Under the pieces are notes generated by a model. That model had not been told where the DNA came from, did not search any database, and saw only the letters and a list, made by a program, of their open reading frames with translations. A stretch of 64,000 bases of DNA from a virus (Duplodnaviria > Heunggongvirae > Uroviricota > Caudoviricetes): the IMG/VR virus record IMGVR_UViG_3300044929_000080. One strand, written 5' to 3'. The number at the start of each line of letters is the position of its first letter. The first letter of the stretch is position 1. Position numbers and translations under genes: made by a program. Below, piece by piece: positions 24,490 through 60,150 of this stretch.

Positions 24490-24490
24490 T

Positions 24491-27400
24491 ATGCTAAATG
24501 ACTCAACAGCTCGTCGTGTTGCCCTTCTCGAAATCAACCGCACTCTTATGGTTGAAGCTGGTGCTGGTTCGGGAAAAACATCACTCATGGCAGGGCGCAT
24601 TATTTCAATGCTCGCCAATGGAATTCATCCTCGCGATATTGCAGCCGTATCATTTACGGAAATGGCGGCAGCTGAACTCATGGCCCGCGTCAGTGATACA
24701 ATAGACGATGTATTAAAAGGAACGCCACCAGCCGACCTCCGTGCCTCTTACGAAGGCGGCAACGTCTCATCAGAAGGGCAAGCGAAGCTTCAGGAGGCCC
24801 AACATCACCTTGGTGAAATGACCTGCACCACTATTCACGGTTTCTGTAAGCGTCTCCTGAAGCCCTATCCGGTCGAGGCCGATATTGATCCTGGTGCCGC
24901 AATCCTAGATGCGACGCAGGCATCTCTCCTTTTTGAGGACGTATTCAACGAATGGATTCGTGAGCGACTGAACAGCGAAGATTATCATAAAGATATCATT
25001 ACCGAGATGGTCGCCGCCCATTCAGATACAAAGGAAGCTATCGAAACCATCCGTCGTCTCGCTGAACAGTTACGTGGTTCACCAGACCTATTCCTACATA
25101 AACAGGAATTCGATATTTCTCCTGTGACTAAATTAATTAGCCAAATCGAAAGCTACGAAAAATGGATCGCGGGTCTTGGTTTTGAAGCCGAGGGCAATGA
25201 AGATATCCGCGCCGATTTTGCTAAATTGCTAAATGATTTGAAGGCAACAAAAACCGTGAAAACGCATCAAGCGGTCATGGACATCATTCGTATGAAGCTT
25301 TCCAGTTCGGTTCTCAAAGCCGATGGCGGATTTCGCGTCTACAAGATGAAGGGAAAATGGCAGGTTGCTGCTCCTTCAAAAAAGGTCGGTGAAGATTGCA
25401 ATACAGAGGCGACTGAACGCTATAATGAAATAGCAGAAGGTTACACCGCCATTAAAACAATGGCCGCGTCGGCAGCGCTTACGATCCTTGAAAGAGAAAT
25501 TCGCCCAATGCTTAATCGCTATCGCGAAAGAAAGCGGCAGGGCGCTGCTCTTGATTTTGAAGATTTGCTCGTCGCAACCCGCAAGCTTCTGCAAAATTAT
25601 CCTGAGATCGCAAGTGCTCTCGGACAGCGGTATAAACATGTCCTCGTTGACGAATTCCAGGACACTGACCCTGTCCAGACAGAGATTTTCAAGCATCTTT
25701 GTTTCGACCGTGACAGCGACGGCGACTGGCTTCCACGTGATGGCGCGATCTTCCTTGTCGGTGATCCAAAACAGGGGATTTATCGTTTCCGTGGCGCTGA
25801 CGTGAAGACATATCTGGATATGCGTAATCTTCTCGAAAAACATGACCCGACATCTATCTTGAAAATCTCTACAAATTTTCGGTCGAGCAAAGGCATTCTG
25901 GATTATGTCAATAACGTATTCGATGTTCCTTTAAGCACACCTACACAGCCAGGATTTACCGCACTCGACCCTTTCCGTCAGGACACGACAAAACATCCTT
26001 CGGTTTCGACAATAAAGATTGGTGAATGGCCTAACATTGCCGAGACACGTGATGAGGAAGCGCGTCAAATTGCAGAAATGGCGCGTAAATTAATTAACAC
26101 ATTCCCTGTTTTTGATAAGAGAATTGGGGCCACACGTCCGTGCAAACCATCCGACATTGCATTGCTCGCTCCAACAGGTTCTGATCTGTGGCGCTATGAG
26201 CACGCACTGGAAGAAGAAGGAATTTCAGTTGCTACTCAGGCGGGCAAGGGAATGTTTCAGCGGCAGGAAGTTCAAGACATGATCGCGATCACCCGCGTTC
26301 TTGCTGATCCTCGCGACCATCTCGCTTTAGGTGCACTATTGCGTGGCCCTCTAGTCGGCATGTCGGAAAACGATCTTCTTGATGCTGCCTACAATCTTCC
26401 GAAACGCGAAGATGAAAGTCTTGCTCATTTACACATTGGTGTCGACACGGACCATATCAAAAATCCCGTTCTGAAGTCTGTTTTGAAACAACTCAACACG
26501 TTGCGTAACAACGGCAAATACACGACGCCTTATGACGTTCTTTCGAGCGCTGTAGACATGTTGAACATCAGAGCGACCGTTAAAGCTCGCCATGTGAAGT
26601 CACCTCATCGTGCGTTGGCCAATATAGACAGATACCTTGAAATGAGCCGTCCTTACACAACACGAGGATTAAGAGCCTTCTCTGATGAGGTCCGTTCCCT
26701 ATGGGAAGAAGCTGAGCGTATTGCGGAAGCACATCCTGACGGAGAAGATCAGTCGGTCTCCATCATTACGATGCACTCATCTAAGGGGCTGGAATGGCCT
26801 GTGGTTTTCGTTATTAACACAATGACAGAAATTATGCGTTCGAGACCGCTGGTTGTTGATGTTAGTTCACGTCAAATATCGATGCCTTTCTTCGGAAGTC
26901 AGCCAACAGGATATAGCGAATTAAAACAGATTTCGGATGACGAATCTCACAATGAACGCGTGCGCTTACTTTACGTAGCAACGACGCGTGCCCGCGATCT
27001 TCTCGTTGTTCCTGTTCATGAAAAAGTAACGGAAAGGCAGTGGGCAACTGTAACTGACTTGAAGTTACAGGATATCCAGACAATGGATCTGGAAACTTTT
27101 TCCAGCAAGATGCGCATACAGCGCGATGTCACCCTCAATAATCAGGATGAGAAGACTTTTTCTGAACAAACTAACTCAATTCTGTCTGCCAAGAAGCTCG
27201 TCGTAAATAAAACCCCTTCTCGCCACGAAAGCCACGCATCGAGCCTTCGGATTACTATCGATGATCTCATCGAAGCTGAACCAGTCAGCGACCCATCCGA
27301 ATTCGTTCAAGGCAGCGCAGAACGCGGTATTGTGATGCATAAGCTGATGGAAGAAATCCTGACAGGAGAGTTGTCCGAGAACGAGGAAGATATTGAAAAG

Positions 27401-27793
27401 CGTGCGCGCGAGTTAATCCAACAGATGATTGCTTCAAAAGAAGATGAGATCAAAGACATGGATGAACACATCATGACAAAGGAGATCATACAAACCCTCT
27501 CCTTGCCCCAAATCGTCATGATGCGTGATCGGCTTGTGCCAGAAGTTGCAACCTATTCCTCATTCGAAAACGACAAGTTTGAAGGCGTTACATTCGGCAT
27601 TATGGATGCGGCCGAAATATCGGATAATGGAACCGTTGAAACCGTTATTGATTGGAAATCGGACAGAAGTCCCGCAGACGCAACAATTGAATTGTACCGC
27701 AAGCAAATTTCGGACTATATGGCCATGAACGGGGTCAACCGGGGATTGATCGTTTTTATGGCAAGCGGAAAAGTTATAGAAGTAGCCGCATGA
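24491..27793 (+). CDS. addA: AddA-type UvrD-family helicase with C-terminal RecB-like nuclease domain
   Basis: Walker A AGAGSGKTS, VDEFQDTDPVQ, TNFRSS, TMHSSKGLEWPVVFV, LLYVATTRARDLLVV; nuclease motif VIDWKSD. True ATG 1 nt after addB stop (track ORF starts upstream in the same frame). Confidence 0.85.
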   Translation: MLNDSTARRVALLEINRTLMVEAGAGSGKTSLMAGRIISMLANGIHPRDIAAVSFTEMAAAELMARVSDTIDDVLKGTPPADLRASYEGGNVSSEGQAKLQEAQHHLGEMTCTTIHGFCKRLLKPYPVEADIDPGAAILDATQASLLFEDVFNEWIRERLNSEDYHKDIITEMVAAHSDTKEAIETIRRLAEQLRGSPDLFLHKQEFDISPVTKLISQIESYEKWIAGLGFEAEGNEDIRADFAKLLNDLKATKTVKTHQAVMDIIRMKLSSSVLKADGGFRVYKMKGKWQVAAPSKKVGEDCNTEATERYNEIAEGYTAIKTMAASAALTILEREIRPMLNRYRERKRQGAALDFEDLLVATRKLLQNYPEIASALGQRYKHVLVDEFQDTDPVQTEIFKHLCFDRDSDGDWLPRDGAIFLVGDPKQGIYRFRGADVKTYLDMRNLLEKHDPTSILKISTNFRSSKGILDYVNNVFDVPLSTPTQPGFTALDPFRQDTTKHPSVSTIKIGEWPNIAETRDEEARQIAEMARKLINTFPVFDKRIGATRPCKPSDIALLAPTGSDLWRYEHALEEEGISVATQAGKGMFQRQEVQDMIAITRVLADPRDHLALGALLRGPLVGMSENDLLDAAYNLPKREDESLAHLHIGVDTDHIKNPVLKSVLKQLNTLRNNGKYTTPYDVLSSAVDMLNIRATVKARHVKSPHRALANIDRYLEMSRPYTTRGLRAFSDEVRSLWEEAERIAEAHPDGEDQSVSIITMHSSKGLEWPVVFVINTMTEIMRSRPLVVDVSSRQISMPFFGSQPTGYSELKQISDDESHNERVRLLYVATTRARDLLVVPVHEKVTERQWATVTDLKLQDIQTMDLETFSSKMRIQRDVTLNNQDEKTFSEQTNSILSAKKLVVNKTPSRHESHASSLRITIDDLIEAEPVSDPSEFVQGSAERGIVMHKLMEEILTGELSENEEDIEKRARELIQQMIASKEDEIKDMDEHIMTKEIIQTLSLPQIVMMRDRLVPEVATYSSFENDKFEGVTFGIMDAAEISDNGTVETVIDWKSDRSPADATIELYRKQISDYMAMNGVNRGLIVFMASGKVIEVAA

Positions 27794-30353: not shown

Positions 30354-31316
30354 TCAAAGACATCTATAAATTGGAGTATTCACTGCATCAAGTTTATTTA
30401 CCCATGTCAGATGCTCATCGAAAAGCTGGTCTTCACCACGCCACGTATATGCTGCCAGCACACCGTCCTTCGCTATCGAGAAATCGAGGCAAGCCATCTT
30501 CGGCGAGAGCAAATAGGGCGTTCCGCTCATCCAATAGTGACCGAAGAACGTCAGCTTGTTCGATGCCGCAATCTTCAGATGATCTGGGAGTGAAAGCTCA
30601 GGCAGGTTCTCTAAACCTTCTTCCGGCATGACAGCACTGCGATAATCAGTGGCGTCATCCTTCCACCATTGCAAGCGTGATTTTGTTCTAACGACACCAC
30701 CCTTGTCGGTAAAAGAAAAACCGTCAGGAAGTTCGATCTCCAACCCCTTGGTGACAACCTCAATTGGATCATAAAGGGCATGCCCCTTTTCGAAACTTGC
30801 TAGAAGATCGTCACGATTCATTGACCCATCATCGTTCATATGAGCTTTTAACGCGTTAAGAGAACTCGGATGCCAACATGCATGAGCCGCTCTGAAATCA
30901 TCCGTTTCAAAAGCGACAGCCAACGTCGAAAAGAATTCAACCAACTCTTTATGGAGATTTGAATCTTCACCAACAGCTTCGATGAAGGCTTTATGTTGAT
31001 GACGGTTTTTGGGCCCACGTAGTCGTAAATGTCGGCCGGACTTACTGTCGGGAACTGGTGTTGCATAACCGATTGCGTTGAGTTCGTGATTGCCCATCAA
31101 AACATGAGCTGCGCCAGCATCACGCATTCTCCGAGGGATGTCTATGGAACGAAGTTGGTCAGGACCGCGATCAATCAGATCACCCAGAAAGATAGCCATC
31201 CTGTTGGGATTTGAATGGCGATAGGTCCCGGCCCTGTTTACGTAACCAAGCTTTTCCAGAAGAGATTCAAGTGCATCAGCGTGACCGTGAATATCTCCAA
31301 TAAAATCGTATTCCAT
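30354..31316 (-). CDS. calcineurin-like metallophosphoesterase (ApaH/PrpE-like)
   Basis: GDIHGH, GDLIDRGPD, GNHE motifs. Confidence 0.8.
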   Translation of the reverse strand: MEYDFIGDIHGHADALESLLEKLGYVNRAGTYRHSNPNRMAIFLGDLIDRGPDQLRSIDIPRRMRDAGAAHVLMGNHELNAIGYATPVPDSKSGRHLRLRGPKNRHQHKAFIEAVGEDSNLHKELVEFFSTLAVAFETDDFRAAHACWHPSSLNALKAHMNDDGSMNRDDLLASFEKGHALYDPIEVVTKGLEIELPDGFSFTDKGGVVRTKSRLQWWKDDATDYRSAVMPEEGLENLPELSLPDHLKIAASNKLTFFGHYWMSGTPYLLSPKMACLDFSIAKDGVLAAYTWRGEDQLFDEHLTWVNKLDAVNTPIYRCL

Positions 31317-32098: not shown

Positions 32099-33391
32099 TT
32101 AATTAGGCTGGATAGTCTCAAGCCCACCCATATACGAACGTAACGAGGTCGGAACCGTGATGGTGCCGTCTTCGTTCTGATAATTCTCCATGATCGCGAT
32201 CAGGAGACGCCCGACAGCGACCCCGGAACCATTGAGCGTATGAACGAATTGTGTACCCTTCTGGCCCCTTACCTTGTGACGGGCATTCATGCGACGGGCC
32301 TGGAAGTCACCGCAATACGAGCAGCTTGAAATCTCACGGTAGGTCTTCTGGCCTGGTACCCAGACTTCGATGTCGTAGGTTTTGCGAGCGCTAAAGCCCA
32401 TATCGCCGCCGCAGAGTAGCATTACGCGGTACGGAAGCTCGAAAGCCTGCAGGATAGCCTCAGCAGCGCCTAGCATGCGCTCCAGTTCCACTTCGCCGTC
32501 CTCTTCCTTCACAATCGATACCAGCTCGACCTTATTGAACTGATGCTGCCGTAGAATACCTCGGACGTCACGGCCAGCCGATCCTGCTTCCGAACGGAAA
32601 CATGGCGTAAGCGCAGTAAACCGTAGCGGCAAGCTTTCCGTCTCCACGATCTGATCGGAAACCAGATTGGTAAGCGAGACCTCAGCTGTTGGGATCAGGT
32701 AACGGCCATCCGTCGTTTTAAAGAGATCTTCTTCAAATTTGGGAAGCTGTCCTGTGCCGAACATTGCGGTTTCGCGAACCAGCAGAGGCACCTGACATTC
32801 CTCGTAACCGTGCTTGCTTGCCATATCTAGCATAAACTGACCAAGCGCACGTTCCAGCTTAGCAATACCTCCACGAAGAACAACAAAGCGGGAACCCGAG
32901 ATGCGACCAGCGCTCTCGAAATCTAGACCGCCAAGTTCTTCACCAAGCTCAAAATGCTGTTTTGGCAAAAAACCCATTTCAGGGATCAATCCAACCGTCC
33001 GTACAAGAACATTGTCTTTCTCATCAACGCCAGCAGGTACACTATCGAGTGGCAAGTTAGGGAAAGTGGCAAGTCGATCAATCAGAGCGTCACCAACCGC
33101 TTTCGCTTTAACTTCCAGCGAGGAGATGGCTTCCTTCAAGGTTGCCACATCTTGCTTAAGAGCATCGCCGGAAGCCTTGTCACCTGCTTTATAAAAGGCT
33201 CCAATTTTCGATGAAAGAACCTTTACCTCATGATTTTTGGTTTCAATTTCCGAATTCGATTCATTGACGATATCACGGGAATCGCGAACAAATCCAAAAA
33301 TGAACAGCGCCTCATCACGCGTATAACCACGCTTCTCAAGGCCTGCAATAAATGCTTCCTCATTATCAATAATTGTTTTTGCGTTATGCAT
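32099..33391 (-). CDS. serS: seryl-tRNA synthetase (class II)
   Basis: N-terminal coiled-coil arm. Class II motif 2 FRSEAGSAGRDVRGILRQHQFNKVELV. GQLPKFEEDLFK. Motif 3 region GSGVAVGRLLIAIMENYQ. Confidence 0.9.
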   Translation of the reverse strand: MHNAKTIIDNEEAFIAGLEKRGYTRDEALFIFGFVRDSRDIVNESNSEIETKNHEVKVLSSKIGAFYKAGDKASGDALKQDVATLKEAISSLEVKAKAVGDALIDRLATFPNLPLDSVPAGVDEKDNVLVRTVGLIPEMGFLPKQHFELGEELGGLDFESAGRISGSRFVVLRGGIAKLERALGQFMLDMASKHGYEECQVPLLVRETAMFGTGQLPKFEEDLFKTTDGRYLIPTAEVSLTNLVSDQIVETESLPLRFTALTPCFRSEAGSAGRDVRGILRQHQFNKVELVSIVKEEDGEVELERMLGAAEAILQAFELPYRVMLLCGGDMGFSARKTYDIEVWVPGQKTYREISSCSYCGDFQARRMNARHKVRGQKGTQFVHTLNGSGVAVGRLLIAIMENYQNEDGTITVPTSLRSYMGGLETIQPN

Positions 33392-36233: not shown

Positions 36234-37052
36234 TTATGCAGCGATTTCTACGTATTCATTCATATTATTATCGAACACAGTGCCAAGACCGCGATCAAGC
36301 AGGACAGGTTCGACGTCGACAACAGACTTGAAACTGCCATCCGTCTGGAAAAAACGGAACGAGCCGTTATCGATAGCTACTGCCGTTAGGCGACCGCTAT
36401 GATAAGCACCCGTATCAATCGAAATGCGATTTTCCGTGACGACTGGAAGGTCGCCAACGACAGTGTGTCCGTGAACAATAATGTTCTGAAGACGCCCAAC
36501 ATGATCCAGAAACGGGTCCCTGATCCACATCAGGTTCTTTTCCGTCTGATCTGTTAGGGAAACCATTGGATCGATGCCAGCGTGGGCGAAAACGATACCG
36601 TCAACAGTTACCATTGGCTTGGCGTTCGCAAACATGCGCAGATGATCTCCATGCATGGTACGCACAAACTCCACTGCCTCATTTAGGTCGCCTGGATAAT
36701 ATGAAGCCAATGTTTCCATACCACCGCGAGACATCCAAGCCGCTGCATATCTGCGATCCTGTTCAAATACAGCTTTCAGAAAAAGGTCATCATGATTGCC
36801 CTTAAGAACAATTGAACCTTCATAATCGATGAGAGCTTCTGCAACGGCATCCATGGCCTGACGGGATTGAGGCCCCTTATCGCAGATATCACCTAAAAAA
36901 ATAAAAATGGGAGTGGCGTCATGAATTGCAGCATCTGCAACAGCATGCGCCATGATCGCGTTTAGAAGATCAGCGCGACCATGGACATCACCAATTGCAT
37001 AAGTGATTTTCTTTGACATTTCTCGCCCCTTTGGATGCGAGATTAATATCAT
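36234..37052 (-). CDS. calcineurin-like metallophosphoesterase (Ser/Thr phosphatase / ApaH-like)
   Basis: GDVHGR, FLGDICDKGP, GNHD motifs. Confidence 0.8.
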   Translation of the reverse strand: MILISHPKGREMSKKITYAIGDVHGRADLLNAIMAHAVADAAIHDATPIFIFLGDICDKGPQSRQAMDAVAEALIDYEGSIVLKGNHDDLFLKAVFEQDRRYAAAWMSRGGMETLASYYPGDLNEAVEFVRTMHGDHLRMFANAKPMVTVDGIVFAHAGIDPMVSLTDQTEKNLMWIRDPFLDHVGRLQNIIVHGHTVVGDLPVVTENRISIDTGAYHSGRLTAVAIDNGSFRFFQTDGSFKSVVDVEPVLLDRGLGTVFDNNMNEYVEIAA

Positions 37053-43340: not shown

Positions 43341-44381
43341 TCACATCGATGGCGCAGATGACAGCGCGGTTTCGTTCGCGACCAACATGTCGAGATCCGC
43401 GAGCATCTGCGGGTAATAGTCCCTGCCCGCTATTTCAATGCCGACGTTATCACGTTGCAAATTCTCAATTGCATCCATTATGCTATCTTTCGCAGCAATA
43501 AGCCTCCCAAAGTCTCTTGCGGGCATACGCGCCATATTAATCGCAGCGTGATTAAGTGTTTCACTTTTAAATGTCTCAGGAATGCCGGGTACATATATAG
43601 GACGTCCCTGTAAAAGTGCATATCTCACCGCGTGCATTGAACCACTTTCCATATCCCCTTGCATAAAGAATGTTGCAGCGGAAACGCCAGTCTGAATGCG
43701 GTTCCTGCGTATTAGTGAAGACGGGTCATGTTCTTTACCCAACGACTGCTCGGTTATCACGACGCCACCGCTTTGAACTATGCGCTCTACAAGGGAAAAC
43801 GCGGAGTCAGATGAATACACATCAATGCCAGAGCCAATGATCGCGGCTGTAGGTGATTTAACGTCGAGAGCAATGTTATGAGCAATGGAATCTACACCAC
43901 GCGCAAGACCTGAAACGATAGTCCAGCCGTCCTCTGCTAAAGTAGCGGTAACTCGCCGAGAGACGGCCGCACCGAACTCCGTAGGACTGCGTGTACCTAT
44001 ACAGGCCACAGAACGATCCAGTAGGTTCATATCACCACTGGTGTAAATCACGAGAGGTGCGTCGGGTGATGATGCAAGGCGCTTAGGATAACCGTCGTCA
44101 TATATGCTGAATATGACTGCGCCCATTTCACGGGCATCAAATAATTCGCCTTCCGCGTTGTCTATTGCCTGAAGAACGGCATCCCGTCCTTCTAAAAGAA
44201 TTCGTCGAACGGGTGCTGTGGCTACACCCTTCAGGATTTCTTCAGTCGAATTAACAACGTCACCCAAGGTTTCGAATTTATCGAGAATTTTGTTCATCGT
44301 TGTCGGGCCAAGGCCTTTAATACCCAGTAGCGTCTTAATGCCCAACGCAGATTTAAGCTGTATGTCATCCATACCCAACAT
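43341..44381 (-). CDS. dprA: DNA processing protein A (DprA/Smf family)
   Basis: Rossmann-like core GLARGVDSIAHNIAL...TAAIIGSGIDVYSSDS; N-terminal HhH-like region. Confidence 0.8.
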   Translation of the reverse strand: MLGMDDIQLKSALGIKTLLGIKGLGPTTMNKILDKFETLGDVVNSTEEILKGVATAPVRRILLEGRDAVLQAIDNAEGELFDAREMGAVIFSIYDDGYPKRLASSPDAPLVIYTSGDMNLLDRSVACIGTRSPTEFGAAVSRRVTATLAEDGWTIVSGLARGVDSIAHNIALDVKSPTAAIIGSGIDVYSSDSAFSLVERIVQSGGVVITEQSLGKEHDPSSLIRRNRIQTGVSAATFFMQGDMESGSMHAVRYALLQGRPIYVPGIPETFKSETLNHAAINMARMPARDFGRLIAAKDSIMDAIENLQRDNVGIEIAGRDYYPQMLADLDMLVANETALSSAPSM

Positions 44382-44963: not shown

Positions 44964-45794
44964 GTGTATTTTGCCCGCAAAAGGAACCGACAAATGACTG
45001 CACCAATTGCAAATATGGAAAAGTACAACAAGGAAATGGTGAAATCGCTGGTCGACAAGATCGCTTTCATCGACAAGGTTGACGCCGAAGTTTTTGTCGA
45101 TTTTGGCTGCGCAGACGGCACCCTTCTTGGCTTCATCAAGAAGCTTTTCCCACAATACACTTTGATCGGTTACGACAACGATTCAGAAATGATCGAACGG
45201 GCGAAGACAAATCCTGAGAATGAAGGAATTGTCTTTACGACGGACTGGGCTGAGATCGAAGCCATCGTTAGTTCAGAGAAAAAACGCGGGCATCATGCCT
45301 GTGTTGTCCTGTCGTCCGTTATACATGAACTCCGCAGCTATCTTTCGGAACAGGAGATGGCTGACGTATGGAGCAAAATCTGGAGCGCTGGAACAAAGGA
45401 GAAGTTGTTCAGCTATGTCGCTATCCGAGATATGATGGTCAGCCGGACTACCAGCCGCGCTGCAGACCCGATGCAGGTTGCCCGTATTCGCCAGCTATTC
45501 GACAAAGACAAGCTAAACCAATGGGAAGCAATTTGGGGTTCTATCAACGAAAATTGGAGCCTGACGCATTTCCTGTTAACGTATCGCTACACCCATTCTT
45601 GGGAACGTGAGGCTCGGGAAAACTATCTCCCTGTGAACTACGAAGATTTTATGGCGAGCATTCCAATTGATTATTTTCCGATTTTCATGGAACACTACAC
45701 GCTTCCATTCCTGAGACGTTGTGTGCAAAAGGATTTTGGTTTTGATCTGTCGGATCGCACTCACTTGAAGCTGGTTCTCGAACTTCGCAAATAA
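44964..45794 (+). CDS. class I SAM-dependent methyltransferase
   Basis: Motif I VFVDFGCADGTLLGF; motif II-like TLIGYDND. Confidence 0.65.
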   Translation: MYFARKRNRQMTAPIANMEKYNKEMVKSLVDKIAFIDKVDAEVFVDFGCADGTLLGFIKKLFPQYTLIGYDNDSEMIERAKTNPENEGIVFTTDWAEIEAIVSSEKKRGHHACVVLSSVIHELRSYLSEQEMADVWSKIWSAGTKEKLFSYVAIRDMMVSRTTSRAADPMQVARIRQLFDKDKLNQWEAIWGSINENWSLTHFLLTYRYTHSWEREARENYLPVNYEDFMASIPIDYFPIFMEHYTLPFLRRCVQKDFGFDLSDRTHLKLVLELRK

Positions 45795-47722: not shown

Positions 47723-48346
47723 ATGGGTTGGGTTTTTGGAGCTAAACCAAACAATATTGGTGAATGGTTGCACAAGATTTATAGTCGGGAAACGAACGAC
47801 ACGAAACAGATCTGTCTTGACTACGCTATGGTCAACATGTCTGAGATTTATATCGCTGTTGAACAAACCGACAAGTATGGGATCAAAACCATAACCGCCG
47901 AAATCATGAGCATTAAGTTTGCAAACGAACGGGAAGACGGCTTCGTCTATCCACAAATGGGTTACAACGTATATGGAGAACAATGCGGAGTTCACCAGAC
48001 CAGCTGTCCCAAGCGAATTTTGGATGTCCTAACACCCACTGACGACATAACATCGAATGAGTGGCGTGATAAGTGTCGCAAAAGACTGGAACACAGAGCC
48101 TCCGTATCCAAACTTCAAGACGGTGACTACATACAATTCTCCGAGAAGATACAATTCAATAACGGAGAGCAACGCGACACGTTTAAAATTAAAAGCTTCA
48201 ACAAAAAGAAAATTCTTGTAGCCGTTTCTAACGATACAGGTGAAACACTTTTTCGTGCCCAAATAAAAAACTGGCGAGATATCGCCTTCAAGAAACTTGA
48301 AGAAGACGATCTCCCTTGGAAAGCAGTCAACAGGATGCGACCATGA
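47723..48346 (+). CDS. hypothetical protein (207 aa)
   Basis: Long ORF, no motif. Confidence 0.45.
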   Translation: MGWVFGAKPNNIGEWLHKIYSRETNDTKQICLDYAMVNMSEIYIAVEQTDKYGIKTITAEIMSIKFANEREDGFVYPQMGYNVYGEQCGVHQTSCPKRILDVLTPTDDITSNEWRDKCRKRLEHRASVSKLQDGDYIQFSEKIQFNNGEQRDTFKIKSFNKKKILVAVSNDTGETLFRAQIKNWRDIAFKKLEEDDLPWKAVNRMRP

Positions 48347-48885
48347 CAGTTCTGGGAAATATCGTCCTGAACTCCAACGAGCGCATCGTATTCCACACTA
48401 CAAGTGCCAGTTTTGATGCGTTTGACGAAGCCTACCTCGGCACTGGCGTGGACAACAACTCCGCGCTCGGTTTCTTTTTTTCGGACAATCCAGAAAACAT
48501 AATCCTGTACACAGACACAGATAGTCGTGTGCTAGTATCTGCTGTCCGCGTGGAGAAGCCATATGGTGAACTCTCCTATTACGAGTTGTTTGGCTATCAG
48601 GAAAACGGCGGCACGGTTACTTCCAAGGAGGACTTCGCATCGATGAGAGACAACCTCCTGATCCACGGATATGACTCCATTGAGTATGAAGACAATGAGG
48701 AAGCAATGCTGATAGCTCTTTCCGCATCTTCAATAAGGCCCCTCGCCTGGTTTTCAGTAGATCAGGCCACAGAGCTTGGCAAACAGATTGGAAGTTTAGC
48801 TGACCCGGAAGATGACAAAGCACGCCTAGTCTGCCTTCAGACCGTCTTGTCAGGATTGAACACAGATACCCCTTATCTACGTTAG
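48316..48885 (+). CDS. hypothetical acidic protein (189 aa)
   Basis: Overlaps upstream ORF by 31 nt; start may be an internal Met. Confidence 0.4.
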   Translation: MESSQQDATMTVLGNIVLNSNERIVFHTTSASFDAFDEAYLGTGVDNNSALGFFFSDNPENIILYTDTDSRVLVSAVRVEKPYGELSYYELFGYQENGGTVTSKEDFASMRDNLLIHGYDSIEYEDNEEAMLIALSASSIRPLAWFSVDQATELGKQIGSLADPEDDKARLVCLQTVLSGLNTDTPYLR

Positions 48886-49699: not shown

Positions 49700-51310
49700 T
49701 TAGATGGAAAATACCATGTCAACCTCTTCAGTTTCGTTATCAATTGGATTCAATGAGACTTCAGCACTGTAGCCTATATTTACATTCCCCAATTTCGACT
49801 GCATAAATTTTCTGATGTCAAACTTAAGTTCATCTGCTTTTCCCATTGTAATTAAGGCCGTTTCAATAATTTCTTCCTTAATGCCCTCGGAGATTGCAAT
49901 TTTTAGAATTGCTTCGTCATACGACATGTTGAAGCGTTCAATAGTCCGCCCAGTGAGCTTCCCATATATTTCTTTTTCCGGATACCAGAGAATAGCCTGC
50001 AAATCTGCCGCACTCATCTCGTAACCATAGTTTTTTAGCTTTTGAATTGATTTTGTTACTACATTCCCAATCCATCTTCTCATAGTACCATTTTTAGGCA
50101 TATCTACTGGCATACCCAGTGACCCAACAATTGAATCAGCAGCACCTGGCCAACCTAACTTTGATTTAAACTCGGAAGCTTCGACATTTGATGGGCGTTC
50201 TTTTCTAGGGACCGATAATGTTGCATAAGAATTGGAAATTTTACCTTCAACATACCGACGCCTAATCTTTTCCCAACCAAGTTTTAACTTGCGGCAATAA
50301 TCTAAAAGAGCGGGTGCGTCCATTTCATCGATTTCACGACTTGTGCGAGCAAGACCTTCCTTTTCAAGAAGCCCCTTCATTCGCACGCTTTCCATGGATT
50401 TCTTCATTCCTTTCAACAATCGCTCATGGGCATCACCTGAGATTTCATCACGGATAAGAGTCCCAGTGTATCGGCCCCACATGCGCATAAACCAGAGATC
50501 AACCGTTACAGGTTCATGATTTCCCATCAGATTCTGAAAGAATCCATTCCCAACCTTCGGTCCAAATAACATGCTTCCATAAACAATCTCATCAGCAAGC
50601 ACCCTGCCGCCAATTTCTATTCCATGTTTCCTTCCAATTTTCTGCAATTGGCTCATCGTCAACTTCATTGTCAAAAGTTTCCTGAGACGGGTAAGATCAC
50701 CTCCAGCACGCGACAATATAAAATTGAAACGTGCGAGGTTGCTTTCGATGGCGGCACCATTCGCACCGTACCCCTTTGGCTTAAAATTTCCAGTCGTAAG
50801 AAAATGGCGATATTGTTCAAGAGCATACTTCATGTTGTCTTGGACATTAATATTTTGAGATGTGATGGCCATTGCAGCGAAAAGAACGGTTCGTGCTTCA
50901 TTCCTATTTTTGAAGAGATTTGATGGATGCCGACTGGCTTCATCGTCCGAGCCAATTTCGGGATGTATTGTCGATGCAATAACCACCATTCGATCAATGG
51001 CATCTGTATACCAATTACATGAAGTAACAACATCTTCTCGATTGAGAGCGAATAATGCTTCTGAGACCATCATGTCCGACAAGACTTCATCGTTTTCAGG
51101 AGTGGACTCTGTAATAGCTTTACCGTCTAAATCCTGAAGAGCACTTTCCATCAAAAAACGAGCCGCTGCTGAATTATCAGGGAACGAATAATCACTCGTT
51201 TCGTCGACGATAGTTCCTATGTAGACACTTGGTAAAGGCAAACGAATTTCACTAAAGTTCCAATTTTTTTCCGCATTTGAAGGCATATAATTATTTCCAA
51301 AAGTCAGCAC
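49700..51310 (-). CDS. large hypothetical protein (536 aa)
   Basis: Long ORF, soluble, no motif recognised. Confidence 0.55.
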   Translation of the reverse strand: MLTFGNNYMPSNAEKNWNFSEIRLPLPSVYIGTIVDETSDYSFPDNSAAARFLMESALQDLDGKAITESTPENDEVLSDMMVSEALFALNREDVVTSCNWYTDAIDRMVVIASTIHPEIGSDDEASRHPSNLFKNRNEARTVLFAAMAITSQNINVQDNMKYALEQYRHFLTTGNFKPKGYGANGAAIESNLARFNFILSRAGGDLTRLRKLLTMKLTMSQLQKIGRKHGIEIGGRVLADEIVYGSMLFGPKVGNGFFQNLMGNHEPVTVDLWFMRMWGRYTGTLIRDEISGDAHERLLKGMKKSMESVRMKGLLEKEGLARTSREIDEMDAPALLDYCRKLKLGWEKIRRRYVEGKISNSYATLSVPRKERPSNVEASEFKSKLGWPGAADSIVGSLGMPVDMPKNGTMRRWIGNVVTKSIQKLKNYGYEMSAADLQAILWYPEKEIYGKLTGRTIERFNMSYDEAILKIAISEGIKEEIIETALITMGKADELKFDIRKFMQSKLGNVNIGYSAEVSLNPIDNETEEVDMVFSI

Positions 51311-51434
51311 TCATTAAAAATGCTGACATATCGGCATGCATAATACGACCGTTAAATGTTGTAATTTTCTATATATAAGTGGCAAAAGCGCCCATCACAA
51401 TTTACATAGTTTAAGGACGCTTTTCCGTAGGAAA

Positions 51435-52016
51435 TTAGATTTTTGGAGCTGCAAGCCTCGGTACCCAATCAGGCATCTCGTCAGCAATATGCAAATCCCA
51501 ATCAAGTGGATTATTGAGTGCACCTTCATTCGCGTTCTTCAAGTGATCCTCAACGTCTGCATTCACGTCATCAGAGCCTGGTACAAAATATTGGCCGTCC
51601 TGATTAAATCCGCCTGGGATTTCACAATATACGAGACGCTCCTCTTCACGATCATATACAAATCGAATTTCGCTGTCGTTTTTCCCATCGAGGATATGTG
51701 TCCAGGAACCGTTTTCGCCTTCAGCGATAACATATCTTGCTCCAGTTAGACCTTCAGCATCCATAAAGCTATCCAGCTCCCCCTTATTGATTTCGACGGT
51801 AAATGGCCCGTCATGATCAGGTTGGAAGCCAACGAGGTTTACCATGAAATCCAGATCGCTGGAATGGCGACCAACCTTGTGCAGAAGAATTTCTCGATCC
51901 ACTCCAGACATCTTGCGAACTGCATCTGAAATGTTGAATTCCCAGTTATCTCCAGTAGGAATAGCATGATCATTGATCCACGCCTCTGCACGATAGTTTG
52001 CTTTCAGTTCCGCCAT
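51435..52016 (-). CDS. hypothetical acidic protein (193 aa)
   Basis: ORF in minus-strand array. Confidence 0.45.
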   Translation of the reverse strand: MAELKANYRAEAWINDHAIPTGDNWEFNISDAVRKMSGVDREILLHKVGRHSSDLDFMVNLVGFQPDHDGPFTVEINKGELDSFMDAEGLTGARYVIAEGENGSWTHILDGKNDSEIRFVYDREEERLVYCEIPGGFNQDGQYFVPGSDDVNADVEDHLKNANEGALNNPLDWDLHIADEMPDWVPRLAAPKI

Positions 52017-52144
52017 CTAAAACTCCTGAAGTGATGCAGTACATAGACATGGTCTATCAGCTGTTTGCGCAACGAACAAATTCCACAAAACAAAATCAAG
52101 TAGTCTTGTTAAAACAGTACAAGACCACTTGATTTACGGAAAAT

Positions 52145-53176
52145 TTAAGCGCTTCTCATTGCATTTGACACTACTTCTGCGTGCATCCAATGGTTCTCTG
52201 TAGAAACGTGGTTTGAACGCACCCATTTGAAGAATGAACGCTGAAAATCGCTGTAACGGATCGGACCAGCAAGCCGTCCGACAAAGCCTTCACATACTGT
52301 CGTGTCGATATCCTTGGCCAACTTTTCCAAAACTTTCAGTTCAAAAGGCCCGTCAAAGAGAACCTTAACTGGGGTTACACCCAGAAGATCAAACCATTCG
52401 ATGGTTTGATCCCAATCGAGGCAGACATTATGATCATTCCATACAGAGAAACCATAAAAGTAACTTTCAAGATCCTCGTAACGGATAGAATGCTGAGCAA
52501 ACATATTCTCACCGCAAACACGCCAGCCCTCTGGAATGTCATGCGCAATTGTTGACCAGAAACGCTTTAGCCAATCACGGCTTGGATGACTGCGACCATC
52601 GATGCTGCGAGCATGCATGTAATCTGAATACAGACTTGAATTCTCGCCATCCATCTTGATGCTCACAATGACACGTTTGCCGAGCAAGTGAGACCAATCT
52701 GCGATTACCTTGTCATCGGACGTCACACATGCAGAGAAAGGCAGATGTGGCGTGCGTGGATATTTATAGTAGCGTAAGTAGCGGTCGAGCATATTGCCCG
52801 TCTTCAAAACCTTTTGAACGCCTTCTTCATGAAACAGTTCCCCACGAAGACGCATACCATTGGACAGGACAACTCCGCCCCACTTTTCGTAAACCGTATC
52901 CTCGTCGAAATGAGGAGGAATGACTGGTTTCGAAATACCGCACTTTTCTCGCAAAGTTTCTACTGAGATTTCAGTCGTTTCGCATTGATAATGGTGTTCA
53001 TTGCAAACTGAAGCTCCATTATCGAGATAGTAGCCACCATCCGGAAATAATCTACGCTCAAGAATATGATGAGGGTCAGCCGCAGGTGCGCCGCAGATAA
53101 CACATTTATGATTATCTCGTTCAAAAACGTATTTCTTGAAATCTTTTCTGCTAAGAAGACCTTTTGGGGCAGACAT
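52145..53176 (-). CDS. HNH endonuclease - ATP-dependent polynucleotide (RNA/DNA) ligase fusion protein
   Basis: N-terminal HNH: CVICGAPAADPHHILERRLFPDGGYYLDNGASVCNEHH. Ligase nucleotidyltransferase motifs I KMDGEN, III VCGENMF, IV CEGFVGR, V FKWVR. Confidence 0.7.
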   Translation of the reverse strand: MSAPKGLLSRKDFKKYVFERDNHKCVICGAPAADPHHILERRLFPDGGYYLDNGASVCNEHHYQCETTEISVETLREKCGISKPVIPPHFDEDTVYEKWGGVVLSNGMRLRGELFHEEGVQKVLKTGNMLDRYLRYYKYPRTPHLPFSACVTSDDKVIADWSHLLGKRVIVSIKMDGENSSLYSDYMHARSIDGRSHPSRDWLKRFWSTIAHDIPEGWRVCGENMFAQHSIRYEDLESYFYGFSVWNDHNVCLDWDQTIEWFDLLGVTPVKVLFDGPFELKVLEKLAKDIDTTVCEGFVGRLAGPIRYSDFQRSFFKWVRSNHVSTENHWMHAEVVSNAMRSA

Positions 53177-53566
53177 TTTATTACTCTCCTTGGAGGCCTG
53201 TTAATGGCAGAGATATAGTAAAAAATCAATAATATTAATTAAGATTTTGTCGGGATAATATCCTGCCGTGATGCGCCCATAGCCCTCGGGACTATTTTCA
53301 GAAATTTATTTTAAAATTATCACTTGATTTTTATTTCTGAGCGCATCATCTTTAAATCACAGCAGACACGAAAGGAATAAACGATGTCGTAGCTCTTCTA
53401 AACGGGACGTCCGCACGGCTAAGGCCGAAACCCATAACAGCAAATCGAGTGCAGCCTTTTATGGTATAGCACCAAAGGTTCCTCCCTAGTTCCTGTTCTC
53501 GGAATTGAAATTCAAACCGAAGACAATATGGCCCAACAAACAAATGGCCAAAAAAGGAACATAATC

Positions 53567-53923
53567 ATGGAACCAAATACTCTCAACACAGAATCCCTGA
53601 ACAAGTTTATCAAACTCGCTCGCACACATAAGCGTGACGAAGAGATCGTTGATACGATTGCTGATAGCATTGGCGTACTTGAACGTAACGCTTATCTGGC
53701 ATTGGTCTCCGAATGGAAACAGACCTTTAAGGTACTATCGAACGACATTCGTGAAGCCAAGCTCATGCGAAAGACCGCTGACACCGAAACTGAACGCAAT
53801 CAGTGGAACTTCACACGCTGGCAGCTCCGTTGGAAAGCTCATTTCATGATGACTGCTCGGCTAGGCATCAAGCAGGTGGCCCGCAGGCATTGGGAAGCGA
53901 AGATCGCAAACGTCGCTGCTTAA
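53567..53923 (+). CDS. small hypothetical basic protein
   Basis: AAGGAAC RBS upstream of internal ATG (MEPNTLN...); track ORF starts 53528. Confidence 0.35.
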   Translation: MEPNTLNTESLNKFIKLARTHKRDEEIVDTIADSIGVLERNAYLALVSEWKQTFKVLSNDIREAKLMRKTADTETERNQWNFTRWQLRWKAHFMMTARLGIKQVARRHWEAKIANVAA

Positions 53924-53987
53924 GCGAACATGCGTCCAGGGGGATCGCTGTAGCAGCGACCCCCGATAGCCATCCAGGAGAGATAGA

Positions 53988-54341
53988 TTGAGTTCAGAAA
54001 CAACGGCCTATTTTGAAGTGCGTTACACGTACTACATGTTCAACAGTGGGGCAGCTGATAATGGATATTACACAAGCAGCATCAGAAAAAACACGGCTGA
54101 GGAAGCGATTGAATTAGCGGATAAAATTGAAAAACACGCTATCCATCACCGATTTCACCATGCCTCACATCATGATCGTCCATTGGAGAAAACCTACGAT
54201 CCAAGCGGCTATACGGAAGACAATGAGGACGAATCTCGCCTATTGATCGAAGACCTCATTCCTAATGATGGCTATTTCATTTCAGCGAAAGCGTATGAAA
54301 CATTGGTTCAGCGAACTCCGTTGAACCTCACACCAGAATAA
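53988..54341 (+). CDS. small hypothetical protein, His-rich (117 aa)
   Basis: ORF with HHRFHHASHH stretch. Confidence 0.35.
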   Translation: MSSETTAYFEVRYTYYMFNSGAADNGYYTSSIRKNTAEEAIELADKIEKHAIHHRFHHASHHDRPLEKTYDPSGYTEDNEDESRLLIEDLIPNDGYFISAKAYETLVQRTPLNLTPE

Positions 54342-54402
54342 ATGGCAGAACTTGTAATTAGTTCAACACCGTGGCCATCATCGAGAAGGCACAGCGAACC
54401 AG

Positions 54403-55380
54403 TTAGCCTTCTCGATGATGTAAAAGTTCCCATTTTATTGTACCTCCAATTTTTTGGGTCGTTTCATAAAAAGCCATAACAATTTTAATCTGGCTCACGC
54501 GCTCATCCACTTCGGCATAATCGGCCCAATGATTGGTATGCGCAAATCGCTCGCCATCAGCAGTGCAAAATACGAACCGTCCGGGATTTTTACTAGGTAA
54601 CTTCATATCGGCAATTGCAGAGCGATTAAAACCATTCACCTTTATATCGTTTAACTGTTTAACGGCCTCCTTTGCAATTAGGTTTGAAACAGTGATTTGA
54701 AGTTTTTCGCCTCCATTCCCAAGTTCCAAATATGAAATAAGCAGGAGATAGATTGCAAGGCCAACCGTGAACCACCAACCTGCATAAGCCGAATAACTTC
54801 CAATCACTAGTACCCCGATAACAGATACATACAGCGTAAATCGTTTTTCGTTCACTTTATTTAAAAATGAACTAAACACCGCACGCATAATTTGTCCGCC
54901 ATCTAACGGATATATGGGGAGCATATTAAAAATGAACAAAACTGCATTGACCGCGAAAGTCACAATTAAGAAACCATCTAATGTAAAAATGTGATCATCA
55001 TAAGCAACTGGTCTGGTAGCGTAGAGAACTGACAATGAAAGAAGTGTAATAACAGCATTAACAATGGGACCAGATATTGAAATAAAAAAACGTGCTGATG
55101 GTTTATCTATTGGGGAGGCAAAGTTCGCTGCGCCACCGATACAGCTCAATGAAATTGATGTTGTGATTATTCCGAATTTCTTAGCTGCAATTACATGGCC
55201 AATTTCATGTAAAAATACCGAAAAGAAAACAATCCCCCACCAGACAACACGTTCCAGAGCGCCATCAACTCCACCTTTGTTATACCCGTAGAAGCCAAAT
55301 CCGAACAATAAGGCAATCAGCGACCAATGAACGGTGATTGGAATTCCAAAAAAATTACCCACATTATGTGATCGAAACAT
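54403..55380 (-). CDS. M50 family site-2 protease-like intramembrane metalloprotease
   Basis: HExxH in TM helix (FLHEIGHVIAAKKFG) plus LDGG motif (PIYPLDGGQIMRAVF); polytopic. Confidence 0.85.
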   Translation of the reverse strand: MFRSHNVGNFFGIPITVHWSLIALLFGFGFYGYNKGGVDGALERVVWWGIVFFSVFLHEIGHVIAAKKFGIITTSISLSCIGGAANFASPIDKPSARFFISISGPIVNAVITLLSLSVLYATRPVAYDDHIFTLDGFLIVTFAVNAVLFIFNMLPIYPLDGGQIMRAVFSSFLNKVNEKRFTLYVSVIGVLVIGSYSAYAGWWFTVGLAIYLLLISYLELGNGGEKLQITVSNLIAKEAVKQLNDIKVNGFNRSAIADMKLPSKNPGRFVFCTADGERFAHTNHWADYAEVDERVSQIKIVMAFYETTQKIGGTIKWELLHHREG

Positions 55381-56522: not shown

Positions 56523-57293
56523 TCAATTGATGATTGTCGAAGGCCTCAGATTCCGCAAGTCAAGAACTAGGCTTTCGACGTATTCAGAATTTTCACCAAA
56601 ATAGCCTCGGCTATTGCAAATCACACGGGAATTCCCGACGACATAGTCATGATTTGAGTGAACAGCTCCATGCACCCAAAGGTCGGGAGCCGAAAATCCG
56701 TCGAGAAGAGAAGACAGATCGGTCGTAAAGCACGCATTATGGGGTGAACCATCGTAACGTGAATGAACAGAGTTACGATGAGGCGTATGATGCGTAACAA
56801 CAATTTTAGTACCGCTAAACGGCTCAGCCAGCTTGCTCCCGATAAACGAACGAGCCTTCTTGTGCTCTTCCAGCTGTCTCGATGGAGACCAGTTAGCAAT
56901 CATAACATTATCCGCTAGGAAGTTAGCCTGCACGAGTTCTTCTGCACGTTCTGAACCATCGAGTTGAAAGTCCGTCCACAGCGTGGAGCCGATGAAACGA
57001 ACACCATTGATGTCGTATGTGTCGTTAATCAGAAGGCGTACACCATTCTTTTCAGCCGCCTTGAGCGCTAGTTCGTTCGCTTTATCAAAACTCGTCCCGT
57101 AGTAGTCGCGATTACCGGGGACATAAATAACAGGCATCTTTTCAGCCAAATCCGACAAAGCGACCACAGATGACACCAGATTAGGTGAATGGTCACCTGC
57201 TACAATTGCGATATCTGCATCAATGTGATCACAGAAATCTGTTATACGGTCCCAGAAATCACATTGATGATCCGAAAAAATGAATGCTTTCAT
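56523..57293 (-). CDS. calcineurin-like metallophosphoesterase (third copy)
   Basis: Motifs FSDHQCD (DxH), IVAGDHSPN (GDxx), VPGNRDYY (GNxD). Confidence 0.7.
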   Translation of the reverse strand: MKAFIFSDHQCDFWDRITDFCDHIDADIAIVAGDHSPNLVSSVVALSDLAEKMPVIYVPGNRDYYGTSFDKANELALKAAEKNGVRLLINDTYDINGVRFIGSTLWTDFQLDGSERAEELVQANFLADNVMIANWSPSRQLEEHKKARSFIGSKLAEPFSGTKIVVTHHTPHRNSVHSRYDGSPHNACFTTDLSSLLDGFSAPDLWVHGAVHSNHDYVVGNSRVICNSRGYFGENSEYVESLVLDLRNLRPSTIIN

Positions 57294-58953: not shown

Positions 58954-60150
58954 TTAAATGGTTGGAAATACCTCCATTTGCATCCGAACGCCATTAACAC
59001 TCACCAAATTGCCCTCATAATACCATTCAACACAGTGTCCTTCTAATGACGATGGCGGCTGAAGCTTGCGGGCTAACCGATTGATCACATCGATGGGTAC
59101 GGTTGCTTTACGTTCATGATTTTGTTTCATCAAACGCGATGGCTCTACTTCCAAATATACGATTTTGATCCGCGCATTATAATCCCGCAAAAGTCGTGTA
59201 ATTTTTTCTCTGTTTAATTTCGTAACGTTCACCGCGTTCCAAACAAAATCTCTAGACGCTCGCAAGTGCTTACGAGCTTCCTCCAAACCTGCCTGAATGA
59301 TCTTGCCCTGGTTCCCAGAAGGATCGATATCAAGGTCTTCTCGCAGTCGATCCAGACTGACAACTGGAAGACCACTAAGATTTTGAGATATCCATGTATC
59401 CTTACCTGTTCCAGGCAACCCGCAAACCAGAGTTACTTCACATCGATAATCCTCATGTGCCTCATACCATGGGCTACGGTCATCCTTTTCAAAATATGCA
59501 AATCGACTTTCGTCGTTTGCGAATTCAAATGGACGATCCAGGACACCCATTTCTAAAAACACCTCCTTCGAGAGATCAATCTTTAGCAACAACTCAGAAA
59601 GATCATGACAAATACGCCCTCTTGCATCTGCTTCTGCGTGCGCAAGTAGCTGAGAGGAAGTGGCCGCCAATGAATATTGGCATGCCATTTTGGATGCATT
59701 ATCGCGCTCATATAGCCAAAACGGCAACTGATGTGCACTGATGATCGAGCAAATTTCTTCACGAAGAACAAGATCAAAGCCAGCAGACCGCATTAAATCG
59801 CGGGCAATTGCAGCTCCAAGCTTGGAATGGCCAACCGAAGATACGCGGCCGTTTTCATCCACTTCAGTTGTTCCTGGCTTACCAATGTCATGAAAAACCG
59901 CAGCCCAAAACATCTTGAACTGGTCATCGTCCGACATCGCCTTCCATGCTTTACCATCGACAAGTTGCTCTAGAACCATTCTGGTATGTGTCGCCACATC
60001 ACCTTCCGCGTGAAAGATTTTGTCCTGAAGACAAAATTTCAACTCACGAAGCTCATCGCATAAATTCTCGATTGCATTCCAATCGAAATATAGCCTGTCA
60101 GGCGATGGTGTTAATGCCCTTAAATCAGGCAATGTAAAATTGCGATTCAT
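58954..60150 (-). CDS. HD-Pnk-type RNA end-healing enzyme (N-terminal HD phosphohydrolase + C-terminal T4 Pnk-like 5'-OH polynucleotide kinase)
   Basis: HD motif AVFHDIGKPG. Kinase P-loop VCGLPGTGKDTWISQN (compare T4 Pnk GCPGSGKSTWAREF) and KATVPIDVINRLARKL (compare T4 Pnk KAVPIDVLRSMYKSM). Confidence 0.8.
   Translation of the reverse strand: MNRNFTLPDLRALTPSPDRLYFDWNAIENLCDELRELKFCLQDKIFHAEGDVATHTRMVLEQLVDGKAWKAMSDDDQFKMFWAAVFHDIGKPGTTEVDENGRVSSVGHSKLGAAIARDLMRSAGFDLVLREEICSIISAHQLPFWLYERDNASKMACQYSLAATSSQLLAHAEADARGRICHDLSELLLKIDLSKEVFLEMGVLDRPFEFANDESRFAYFEKDDRSPWYEAHEDYRCEVTLVCGLPGTGKDTWISQNLSGLPVVSLDRLREDLDIDPSGNQGKIIQAGLEEARKHLRASRDFVWNAVNVTKLNREKITRLLRDYNARIKIVYLEVEPSRLMKQNHERKATVPIDVINRLARKLQPPSSLEGHCVEWYYEGNLVSVNGVRMQMEVFPTI

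Follow-up and report, generated by a model that had tools for sequence, protein, structure and literature searches.

A minimal RNA ligase fused to an HNH nuclease module: a candidate RNA-repair enzyme of giant phages

Introduction

Why would a tailed virus carry a nuclease and a ligase, activities that cut and seal nucleic acids, in a single polypeptide? The question is raised by a gene found in a 64,000-nucleotide stretch of DNA from a member of the class Caudoviricetes (IMG/VR record IMGVR_UViG_3300044929_000080; the whole stretch is hereafter called the window), in which one 343-aa open reading frame (ORF) combines the motifs of an HNH endonuclease with those of an ATP-dependent polynucleotide ligase. 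The original prediction, made from the sequence alone, regarded the fusion as an architecture that is not among the standard described ones, and suggested roles ranging from break-and-rejoin reactions and intron- or homing-like activity to repair or editing. We find that the gene is a further member of a catalogued family of giant-phage HNH-RNA ligases, so that its architecture is not new, and that RNA repair is the best-supported setting among the suggested roles.

Results

The fusion gene

The plus strand of the 52145-53176 segment is full of stop codons, and the sole ORF in this segment lies on the minus strand, with its ATG at 53176 (Table 1); the strand had not been stated in the original prediction. 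Both sets of motifs that had been read in this ORF are present, namely, C25-x2-C28, H36-H37, N53, and C58-x2-H61-H62 in the N-terminal HNH region, and K174-MDGEN, C221-GEN, E296-GFVGR, and K317-WVR in the ligase region. A promoter-scan hit was rejected because its second hexamer, ending at 53175, overlaps the start codon, and no terminator was found for the gene. The identical 343-aa protein is present on 144 JGI contigs. A search for near-identical DNA with positions 51000-55000 against a phage collection returned no match, and the 64-kb window contains no detectable tRNA genes or Rfam families.

Table 1. Features of the HNH-RNA ligase gene and of candidate partner genes in the window.
Feature	Coordinates	Strand	Details
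HNH-RNA ligase gene, complete	52145..53176	-	343 codons plus stop; ORF list, translation, full-length phrog_24030 match
Shine-Dalgarno sequence AAGGAG	53186..53191	-	9 nt upstream of the ATG; read from sequence
HNH (beta-beta-alpha-metal) nuclease core	52967..53149	-	Residues ~10-70
Conserved middle region	52772..52966	-	Residues 71-135; R76, P87, H89, K98-W99-G100, R109, GELF
RNA-ligase nucleotidyltransferase domain	52148..52771	-	Residues 136-343; without C-terminal or OB domain
Motif I, K174-MDGEN	52640..52657	-	Predicted lysine-AMP site; K174, D176, G177, E178 invariant in 121/121
Motif III, C221-G-E223-N	52505..52516	-	E223, N224 invariant in 121/121
Motif IV, E296-GFVGR	52274..52291	-	E296, G297 invariant; R301 in 120/121
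Motif V, K317-WVR	52217..52228	-	K317, V319, R320 invariant in 121/121
Calcineurin-type metallophosphoesterase	56523..57293	-	Pfam Metallophos; phrog_1649, E = 2e-40; between ligase and HD-Pnk
HD-Pnk, candidate end-healing partner	58954..60150	-	Pfam HD, residues 54-147; AAA_33, residues 239-366

A catalogued family in bacterial and archaeal viruses

The notion that the fusion departs from described architectures is refuted. The protein matches the family phrog_24030 ("RNA ligase") over its full length (residues 7-341 versus profile positions 3-341 of 342; E = 4.7e-131). In RefSeq, the homologues in phages ME3 (gp200) and CcrSC (gp219) are named "RNA ligase," as is gene 233 of HGTV-1, which bears the note "HNH endonuclease domain." Finally, Iyer et al. 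2021 noted that ligases of the Rnl2 type occur with an HNH domain fused at the N-terminus. An 89%-identical copy is named "RNA ligase family protein" by NCBI.

The full-length fusion occurs in 17 phage records, and tblastn recovered full-length homologues in Salicola phage SCTP-2, Ralstonia phage RsoM2USA, Caulobacter phages CcrSC, CcrBL9, and J4, Acinetobacter phage ME3, and HGTV-1. The proteins of ME3, CcrSC, SCTP-2, RsoM2USA, and HGTV-1 share the two-domain architecture end to end, with 35-55% identity and identical catalytic residues in the two halves, and differ only in sequence divergence and host replicon. On a larger scale, the query has approximately 3,950 matches in a protein database at E<=0.001, the best 120 of them all being full-length fusions, and relatives are encoded on 307 IMG/VR viral contigs; the best 80 of these 307, on contigs of up to 561 kb, all carry the full-length fusion. 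A literature search found no experimental characterization of any family member.

A minimal RNA-ligase domain

As judged from sequence, residues 136-343 are a minimal ATP-dependent RNA-ligase nucleotidyltransferase (NTase) that belongs to the Rnl2/Rnl5 superfamily and has the full set of catalytic motifs, which supports the covalent nucleotidyltransferase predicted for the C-terminal part of the protein. The Pfam family PF09414 (RNA_ligase) matches residues 168-319 with a score of 93.2 bits (cutoff 27; E = 2.6e-26) across model positions 2-171 of 171, and a fold search retrieved Rnl2, Rnl5, Rnl3, and REL1, in keeping with a nucleotidyltransferase fold. Sequence searches of the PDB with the full protein and with the family profile returned nothing for the ligase half and only IscB for the HNH half.

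Comparison with structurally known ligases points to a domain arrangement of a different kind. T4 Rnl2 (PDB 1S68 and 2HVQ) has a C-terminal helical domain, required for sensing nicks and for 5'-adenylylation; the fusion instead ends 23 residues after motif V, a segment modeled as one short helix, and carries the HNH domain at its N-terminus. Neither the sequence nor the model contains a Rnl2-type C-terminal domain, and structure prediction, which had been proposed as a way of finding an OB or other domain behind the NTase, revealed none. Motif V of the fusion reads K-x-x-R, unlike the K-x-K of Rnl2. The protein is, therefore, Rnl2-like in its NTase domain only. In Rnl5 (Naegleria gruberi NgrRnl, PDB 5COT, and Deinococcus DraRnl), the NTase is preceded by an OB fold, whereas the fusion has an HNH nuclease domain at its N-terminus; the fold search gave no OB match, the N-terminal module matching HNH folds. 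A ligase-only counterpart, a 210-aa Aneurinibacillus protein (locus L002), shares 51% identity with residues 138-341 and lacks the HNH module, as do the bacterial ligases paired with HD-Pnk or Pnk-HD that we examined.

An HNH module with a family-specific extension

The HNH core comprises the zinc ligands C25, C28, C58, and H61, the general base H37, and further H36, N53, and H62. The alternative that the N-terminus is a zinc ribbon devoid of the HNH histidine and asparagine residues is not borne out, given that H37, N53, and H62 are kept and that a fold search matched the HNH domains of GVE2, IscB, and McrA, with their beta-beta-alpha-metal fold. In profile searches, of the kind originally proposed for each half, the HNH half stays below the Pfam thresholds, with sub-threshold matches to DUF968 and HNHc_6 only, and scores 17.8 bits against the NCBIfam IscB model (cutoff 175), but is matched by 11 PHROG HNH families (E = 3e-7 to 3e-3), and a profile built from just the N-terminal module matches IscB HNH domains in the PDB (E = 6e-4). 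Alignments with the HNH domains of IscB and Cas9 span 97-107 residues, and H37 falls on the catalytic H247 of OgeuIscB, the equivalent of Cas9 H840. The closest solved HNH relatives, those of IscB, McrA, GVE2, and Cas5-HNH, cut DNA rather than RNA. These DNA nucleases, like that of Cas9, are embedded in other proteins or stand alone, whereas the module of the fusion has a family-specific extension of about 65 residues and occurs in RNA-ligase contexts.

This extension (residues 71-135; pLDDT 88-95 in the predicted structure) travels with the HNH core as a single module of about 130 aa. When residues 1-135 were searched against 1.8 billion representative sequences, 955 matches were obtained, some of which are proteins of 130-136 aa that terminate right at the domain boundary, indicating that the HNH core and its conserved extension form an independent module. 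In BFVD, a 139-aa "Endonuclease" and a 204-aa "Ligase" are found as separate viral proteins. In the predicted structure of the 343-aa fusion (pLDDT 90.1, pTM 0.85), the two halves appear to pack as one unit.

Both catalytic centers are conserved

To assess conservation, the query was aligned with the 120 closest of its approximately 3,950 database relatives (n = 121). C25, C28, H36, H37, N53, C58, and H62 of the HNH half and K174, D176, G177, E178, E223, E296, K317, and R320 of the ligase half are invariant in 121/121 sequences; at position 61, 109 sequences have H, 9 have C, and 3 have D, each of them a possible zinc ligand. The archaeal virus HGTV-1, at 35% identity, and a huge uncultured phage, at 41%, retain the same catalytic residues. 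Invariance of the catalytic residues of both halves, maintained into such distant members, suggests that both activities are under selection.

These data bear on the idea that the HNH domain acts solely as a nucleic-acid clamp, which would retain the metal sites because they serve folding or binding, would no longer cut, and would play the part that the OB domain plays in Rnl5 or the C-terminal domain in Rnl2. A clamp would suit an NTase that is minimal and has no accessory domain of any sort, and it would fit the placement of the module N-terminal to the NTase, where NgrRnl and DraRnl have their OB domain. However, inactivated HNH domains usually lose the general-base histidine, the asparagine, and the metal-binding histidine, and it is precisely His37, Asn53, and His62 that are invariant, besides the zinc ligands, in all 121 sequences and in the 35%-identical archaeal-virus member. 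We thus hold a clamp-only role to be improbable, and a decayed or purely structural HNH domain, judging from the conserved residues, to be unlikely.

A second possibility is that the HNH domain is a selfish homing endonuclease that was joined to an RNA ligase gene at its 5' end and would promote the spread of that gene. Free-standing HNH and GIY-YIG homing genes are indeed common in the same phage loci, and inteins have invaded this very gene family: relatives of about 700 aa, which we had considered as triple fusions with HD-Pnk, owe their extra length to a Hint/LAGLIDADG intein (in one case, a mini-intein) inserted within motif I, between KMDGE and the following C or N, and the triple-fusion interpretation was rejected. 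Inteins typically target functionally critical sites. Nevertheless, the HNH half is more conserved than the supposed host gene, mean identity to the query being 69% in the HNH half as against 56% in the NTase and 53% in residues 71-135. The N-terminal module differs from the Pfam-detectable HNH and GIY-YIG types found free-standing in the same phage loci, scoring below the Pfam HNH thresholds, unlike the free-standing copies, and it carries no DNA-binding extensions. The fusion is also ancient and uniform in length (340-349 aa in 99 of the 121 proteins). Homing endonucleases are marked by a sporadic, mobile distribution and by accessory DNA-binding modules; instead, the 121 proteins are uniform in architecture, and no extra DNA-binding domain is present. 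A homing role for the fusion is accordingly unlikely, and we consider this explanation the most improbable of those discussed here.

Candidate partners in the window

The original prediction pointed to an HD-Pnk end-healing enzyme about 6 kb away, and such a gene does lie 5.8 kb off, on the same strand as the fusion. The encoded chain is predicted to combine an N-terminal HD phosphoesterase domain with a C-terminal P-loop kinase domain, and shares 37% identity along its entire length with the HD-Pnk encoded in a gene cluster (locus L010) described below. The interval between the ligase and HD-Pnk genes holds nine ORFs 90 aa or longer, of which four run on the opposite strand; given this distance and the oppositely oriented genes in between, the two genes do not share an operon in this window. 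The metallophosphoesterase gene located in the interval may, by its family assignment, encode an additional end-healing enzyme. Elsewhere, the window encodes DprA and an AddAB-like helicase-nuclease.

Neighborhoods in other phages and bacteria

An adjacent, co-oriented heal-and-seal gene pair, while not found in the window, is present in phage LR756500 and in Aneurinibacillus. In LR756500, genes for PARP, R2K ATP-grasp, AAA, the HNH-Rnl fusion, HD-Pnk, DFP, and major vault protein follow one another in the same orientation; the genes from AAA to HD-Pnk are separated by gaps of 3 nt, and HD-Pnk lies immediately downstream of the fusion. The order of ligase followed by HD-Pnk is common to LR756500 and the Runella repair cluster. 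In Aneurinibacillus, the ligase-only homologue follows a Pnk-HD gene at a distance of 25 nt. In HGTV-1, a tRNA nucleotidyltransferase gene is located approximately 3 kb from the fusion.

A broader survey tempers these examples. Among the best 80 of the 307 viral loci, only 1 has HD-Pnk within 10 kb of the fusion, and the match is weak, for which reason we reject HD-Pnk as a general neighbor; within the same distance, a CCA-adding enzyme is encoded in 5/80 and RlaP in 6/80 loci. We also compared the Pfam content of 150 near neighbors from 58 non-redundant viral loci with that of 150 control ORFs located 5-9 kb away. Metallophos (4), which is thus among the most frequent near neighbors of the fusion in other phages, and R2K (4) lead the list, followed by HAD_PNKP, HAD_SAK_2, Thg1, AAA_33/KTI12, and DUF2828 (2 each); the control ORFs yielded AAA (5), GIY-YIG (4), HNH (3), and RNA_ligase, RlaP, and Metallophos (2 each). 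RNA-repair families account for 12/150 near and 6/150 far genes on a strict count, a difference that is not significant (Fisher p = 0.22); a looser count gives a borderline p = 0.018, and their enrichment around the fusion across phages is weak. The neighborhoods in ME3, CcrSC, XacN1, and Phosso consist of hypothetical proteins and are uninformative.

There are also loci in which the HNH module is encoded as a separate protein. In locus L010, it stands beside a cluster of RNA ligase, CCA-adding enzyme, and HD-Pnk genes, and in loci L012 and L013, it stands beside DprA and RlaP genes, one such module lying between the two, with DprA being adjacent in L012. The gene downstream of the standalone module in locus L011 was considered as a split ligase half and rejected, as it shows no similarity.

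Shared function versus two unrelated jobs

Iyer et al. 2021 proposed that the HNH domain is a DNase used offensively on the DNA of the host or of competing phages; the ligase would independently repair RNA that the phage needs, and the fusion would merely couple the expression of two proteins with unrelated jobs. The DNA-cleaving nature of the nearest solved HNH relatives is compatible with this proposal, as is the predominance of unrelated ORFans in the gene neighborhoods. Yet the domain order, the domain boundary, and the strongly conserved segment between the domains are fixed from bacterial to archaeal viruses, the model is predicted to form a single body (pTM 0.85), and even as a separate protein, the HNH module still adjoins genes for the ligase, the CCA-adding enzyme, HD-Pnk, or RlaP. 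Collectively, the fixed architecture, the single-body model, and the neighbors of the standalone modules argue for a shared function rather than for co-expression alone, and we view two independent activities as unlikely, if worth keeping in mind.

A shared function could, in principle, be exerted on DNA, with the HNH domain nicking phage or host DNA and the ligase resealing it during nick processing, recombination, or packaging. GVE2-type HNH enzymes are DNA nickases, and the genes for DprA and the AddAB-like helicase-nuclease in the window, together with the DprA gene adjacent to the standalone module in L012, would fit such a scheme. We judge a DNA nick-and-seal enzyme to be distinctly improbable.

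Discussion

In the present study, we considered what a nuclease-ligase fusion might do for the viruses that encode it. The reading that we favor, to which we give an even chance of being correct, is that the fusion is a two-activity giant-phage enzyme for the repair of breaks in RNA, most likely tRNA, in which the HNH domain holds, trims, or re-cuts the substrate. The assignment to RNA repair draws on the operons shared with HD-Pnk and on the standalone HNH modules that lie beside ligase, CCA-adding enzyme, HD-Pnk, and RlaP genes. Counting against it are the scarcity of HD-Pnk near the fusion in other viruses, the weak enrichment of RNA-repair families, the lack of a shared operon, of tRNA genes, and of Rfam families in the window, the DNA-cutting activity of the closest solved HNH relatives, and the failure of the Runella ligase on standard substrates, described below.

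The RNA breaks made by host ribotoxins carry 2',3'-cyclic-phosphate and 5'-OH ends. Such ends would have to be healed first, most plausibly by the HD-Pnk encoded at 58954-60150 and/or by metallophosphoesterases. Following the established ligase mechanism, ATP would then react with K174 to give ligase-AMP, the AMP would pass onto the 5'-phosphate of the RNA, and attack by the 3'-OH would seal the break. The HNH module takes the N-terminal position of the OB domain of Rnl5 and may stand in for the missing accessory domain, probably holding the substrate and trimming or re-cutting it. Cleavage by HNH enzymes yields 5'-phosphate and 3'-OH ends. That the nuclease would act on the very substrate that is sealed is suggested by its intact catalytic set and by the fact that these products are exactly the substrates of the ligase.

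A related, more specific and rather doubtful possibility is that the HNH domain is an RNA-end trimming nuclease, clipping one or more damaged terminal nucleotides, such as those with a 2',3'-cyclic-phosphate end, from a broken tRNA or another RNA, and leaving a 3'-OH or 5'-phosphate for the fused ligase to seal. The gap could be refilled before sealing by the neighboring RlaP, CCA-adding enzyme, or Thg1. If this is true, trimming and sealing would constitute a self-contained RNA repair route that bypasses healing by kinase and phosphatase. It might also explain the failure of minimal HD-Pnk-linked ligases on standard substrates. The HD-Pnk-linked ligase of Runella slithyformis, from the cluster of Munir & Shuman, is reported to form ligase-AMP but to have sealed none of the standard substrates tried. 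Our comparison of the fusion with the Runella ligase is one of gene order.

The interest of the gene lies in its being a well-supported candidate for first biochemistry within a large and ancient family that spans bacterial and archaeal viruses. Such a compact combination of nuclease and ligase may also prove attractive as a tool enzyme. A result on the activity of the family would bear on what HD-Pnk-associated ligases seal, the question raised by the Runella work, and on how giant phages counter the RNA-cleaving defenses of their hosts.

Gene neighborhood of the ligase

Two sets of genes lie downstream of the HNH-RNA ligase fusion in the window. Neither of the 2 co-oriented ORFs closest to it (193 and 536 aa) has a significant Pfam match or any PHROG match; for the longer one, the sole Pfam signal is a sub-threshold match to DUF7178. 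Their conservation is limited to the close relative L001, and they are missing from all 80 other viral loci checked. Located 3-9 kb downstream of the ligase are genes for an ART-PolyVal-like ADP-ribosyltransferase, a SAM methyltransferase, and DprA, all syntenic in L001. This set bears a loose resemblance to the Runella repair cluster, a bacterial ligase and HD-Pnk cassette that includes Tpt1 and methyltransferase genes, but no Tpt1/KptA match was found.

Elsewhere in the window, further RNA-metabolism genes encode an RNase J-like nuclease, a histidyl-tRNA-synthetase-like protein, and 2 more calcineurin-type phosphoesterases, each of which also shows a match to the phosphoesterase portion of a PHROG family named "RNA ligase". 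The window also contains an AddAB-like nuclease and helicase pair, as well as 2 neighboring large ORFs (711 and 750 aa), which are paralogues without Pfam or PHROG matches. The two resemble one and the same stretch of a structural protein from the virion of PA5oct, a Pseudomonas jumbo phage.

Features of the window and of loci with relatives of the ligase or its HNH module
Feature	Location	Strand	Remark
RNase J-like beta-CASP nuclease	window 9145-10698	-	
ORF, 711 aa	window 12591-14726	+	
ORF, 750 aa	window 14795-17047	+	
PD-(D/E)XK nuclease protein	window 21778-24489	+	first gene of AddAB-like pair
UvrD-type helicase with C-terminal PD-(D/E)XK domain	window 24314-27793	+	second gene, overlaps first
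Calcineurin-type phosphoesterase	window 30354-31316	-	further gene of this type
Histidyl-tRNA-synthetase-like protein	window 32099-33391	-	full-length phrog_16140 match
Calcineurin-type phosphoesterase	window 36234-37052	-	further gene of this type
DprA	window 43341-44381	-	
SAM methyltransferase	window 44964-45794	+	
ART-PolyVal-like ADP-ribosyltransferase	window 48316-48885	+	score just under Pfam cutoff
ORF, 536 aa	window 49700-51310	-	co-oriented with ligase, downstream
ORF, 193 aa	window 51435-52016	-	co-oriented with ligase, directly downstream
Co-directional gene run	L009 (LR756500.1 19000-32000), 1905-11872	-	huge uncultured phage
Region with separate HNH-module gene	L010 3086-7144		adjoins RNA ligase, CCA-adding enzyme, HD-Pnk cluster
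Region with separate HNH-module gene	L012 5459-7782		flanked by DprA and RlaP

Relatives of the ligase and of its HNH module

The co-directional run in L009, in the order PARP, R2K ATP-grasp, AAA ATPase, HNH-RNA ligase, HD-Pnk, DFP-like protein, and major vault protein, is a vault/PARP-flavored RNA-repair cluster in a phage. The HNH-plus-extension module (~130 aa) is also found as a separate gene. Among the ligase-family relatives, P0123, P0132, P0228, and P0252 (about 700 aa) contain a Hint/LAGLIDADG intein within the ligase, and P0194 (530 aa) contains a mini-intein. The insertion point lies exactly within ligase motif I (KMDGE, then C...HN, then C/N).

Contigs carrying the ligase

The exact ligase protein is present on 144 JGI contigs, the longest of ~1.0 Mb; metagenome contig L003 (JGI 3300045179 Ga0485381_00007), which encodes it, spans 1,002,202 bp. 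L001 (NZ_JAVXZD010000002.1) is a 1.19-Mb contig labeled Mesorhizobium sp. SP-1A, with a local GC content of 50% versus 44.5% in the window. Its ligase gene, 82% identical to that of the window in DNA and 89% in protein, lies in a block of about 17 kb that shares synteny with ~43-60 kb of the window. The gene content is ORFan-rich and jumbo-phage-like, with Pfam matches limited to about 8 of 33 genes. A phage-like replicon of megabase scale would be unusual.
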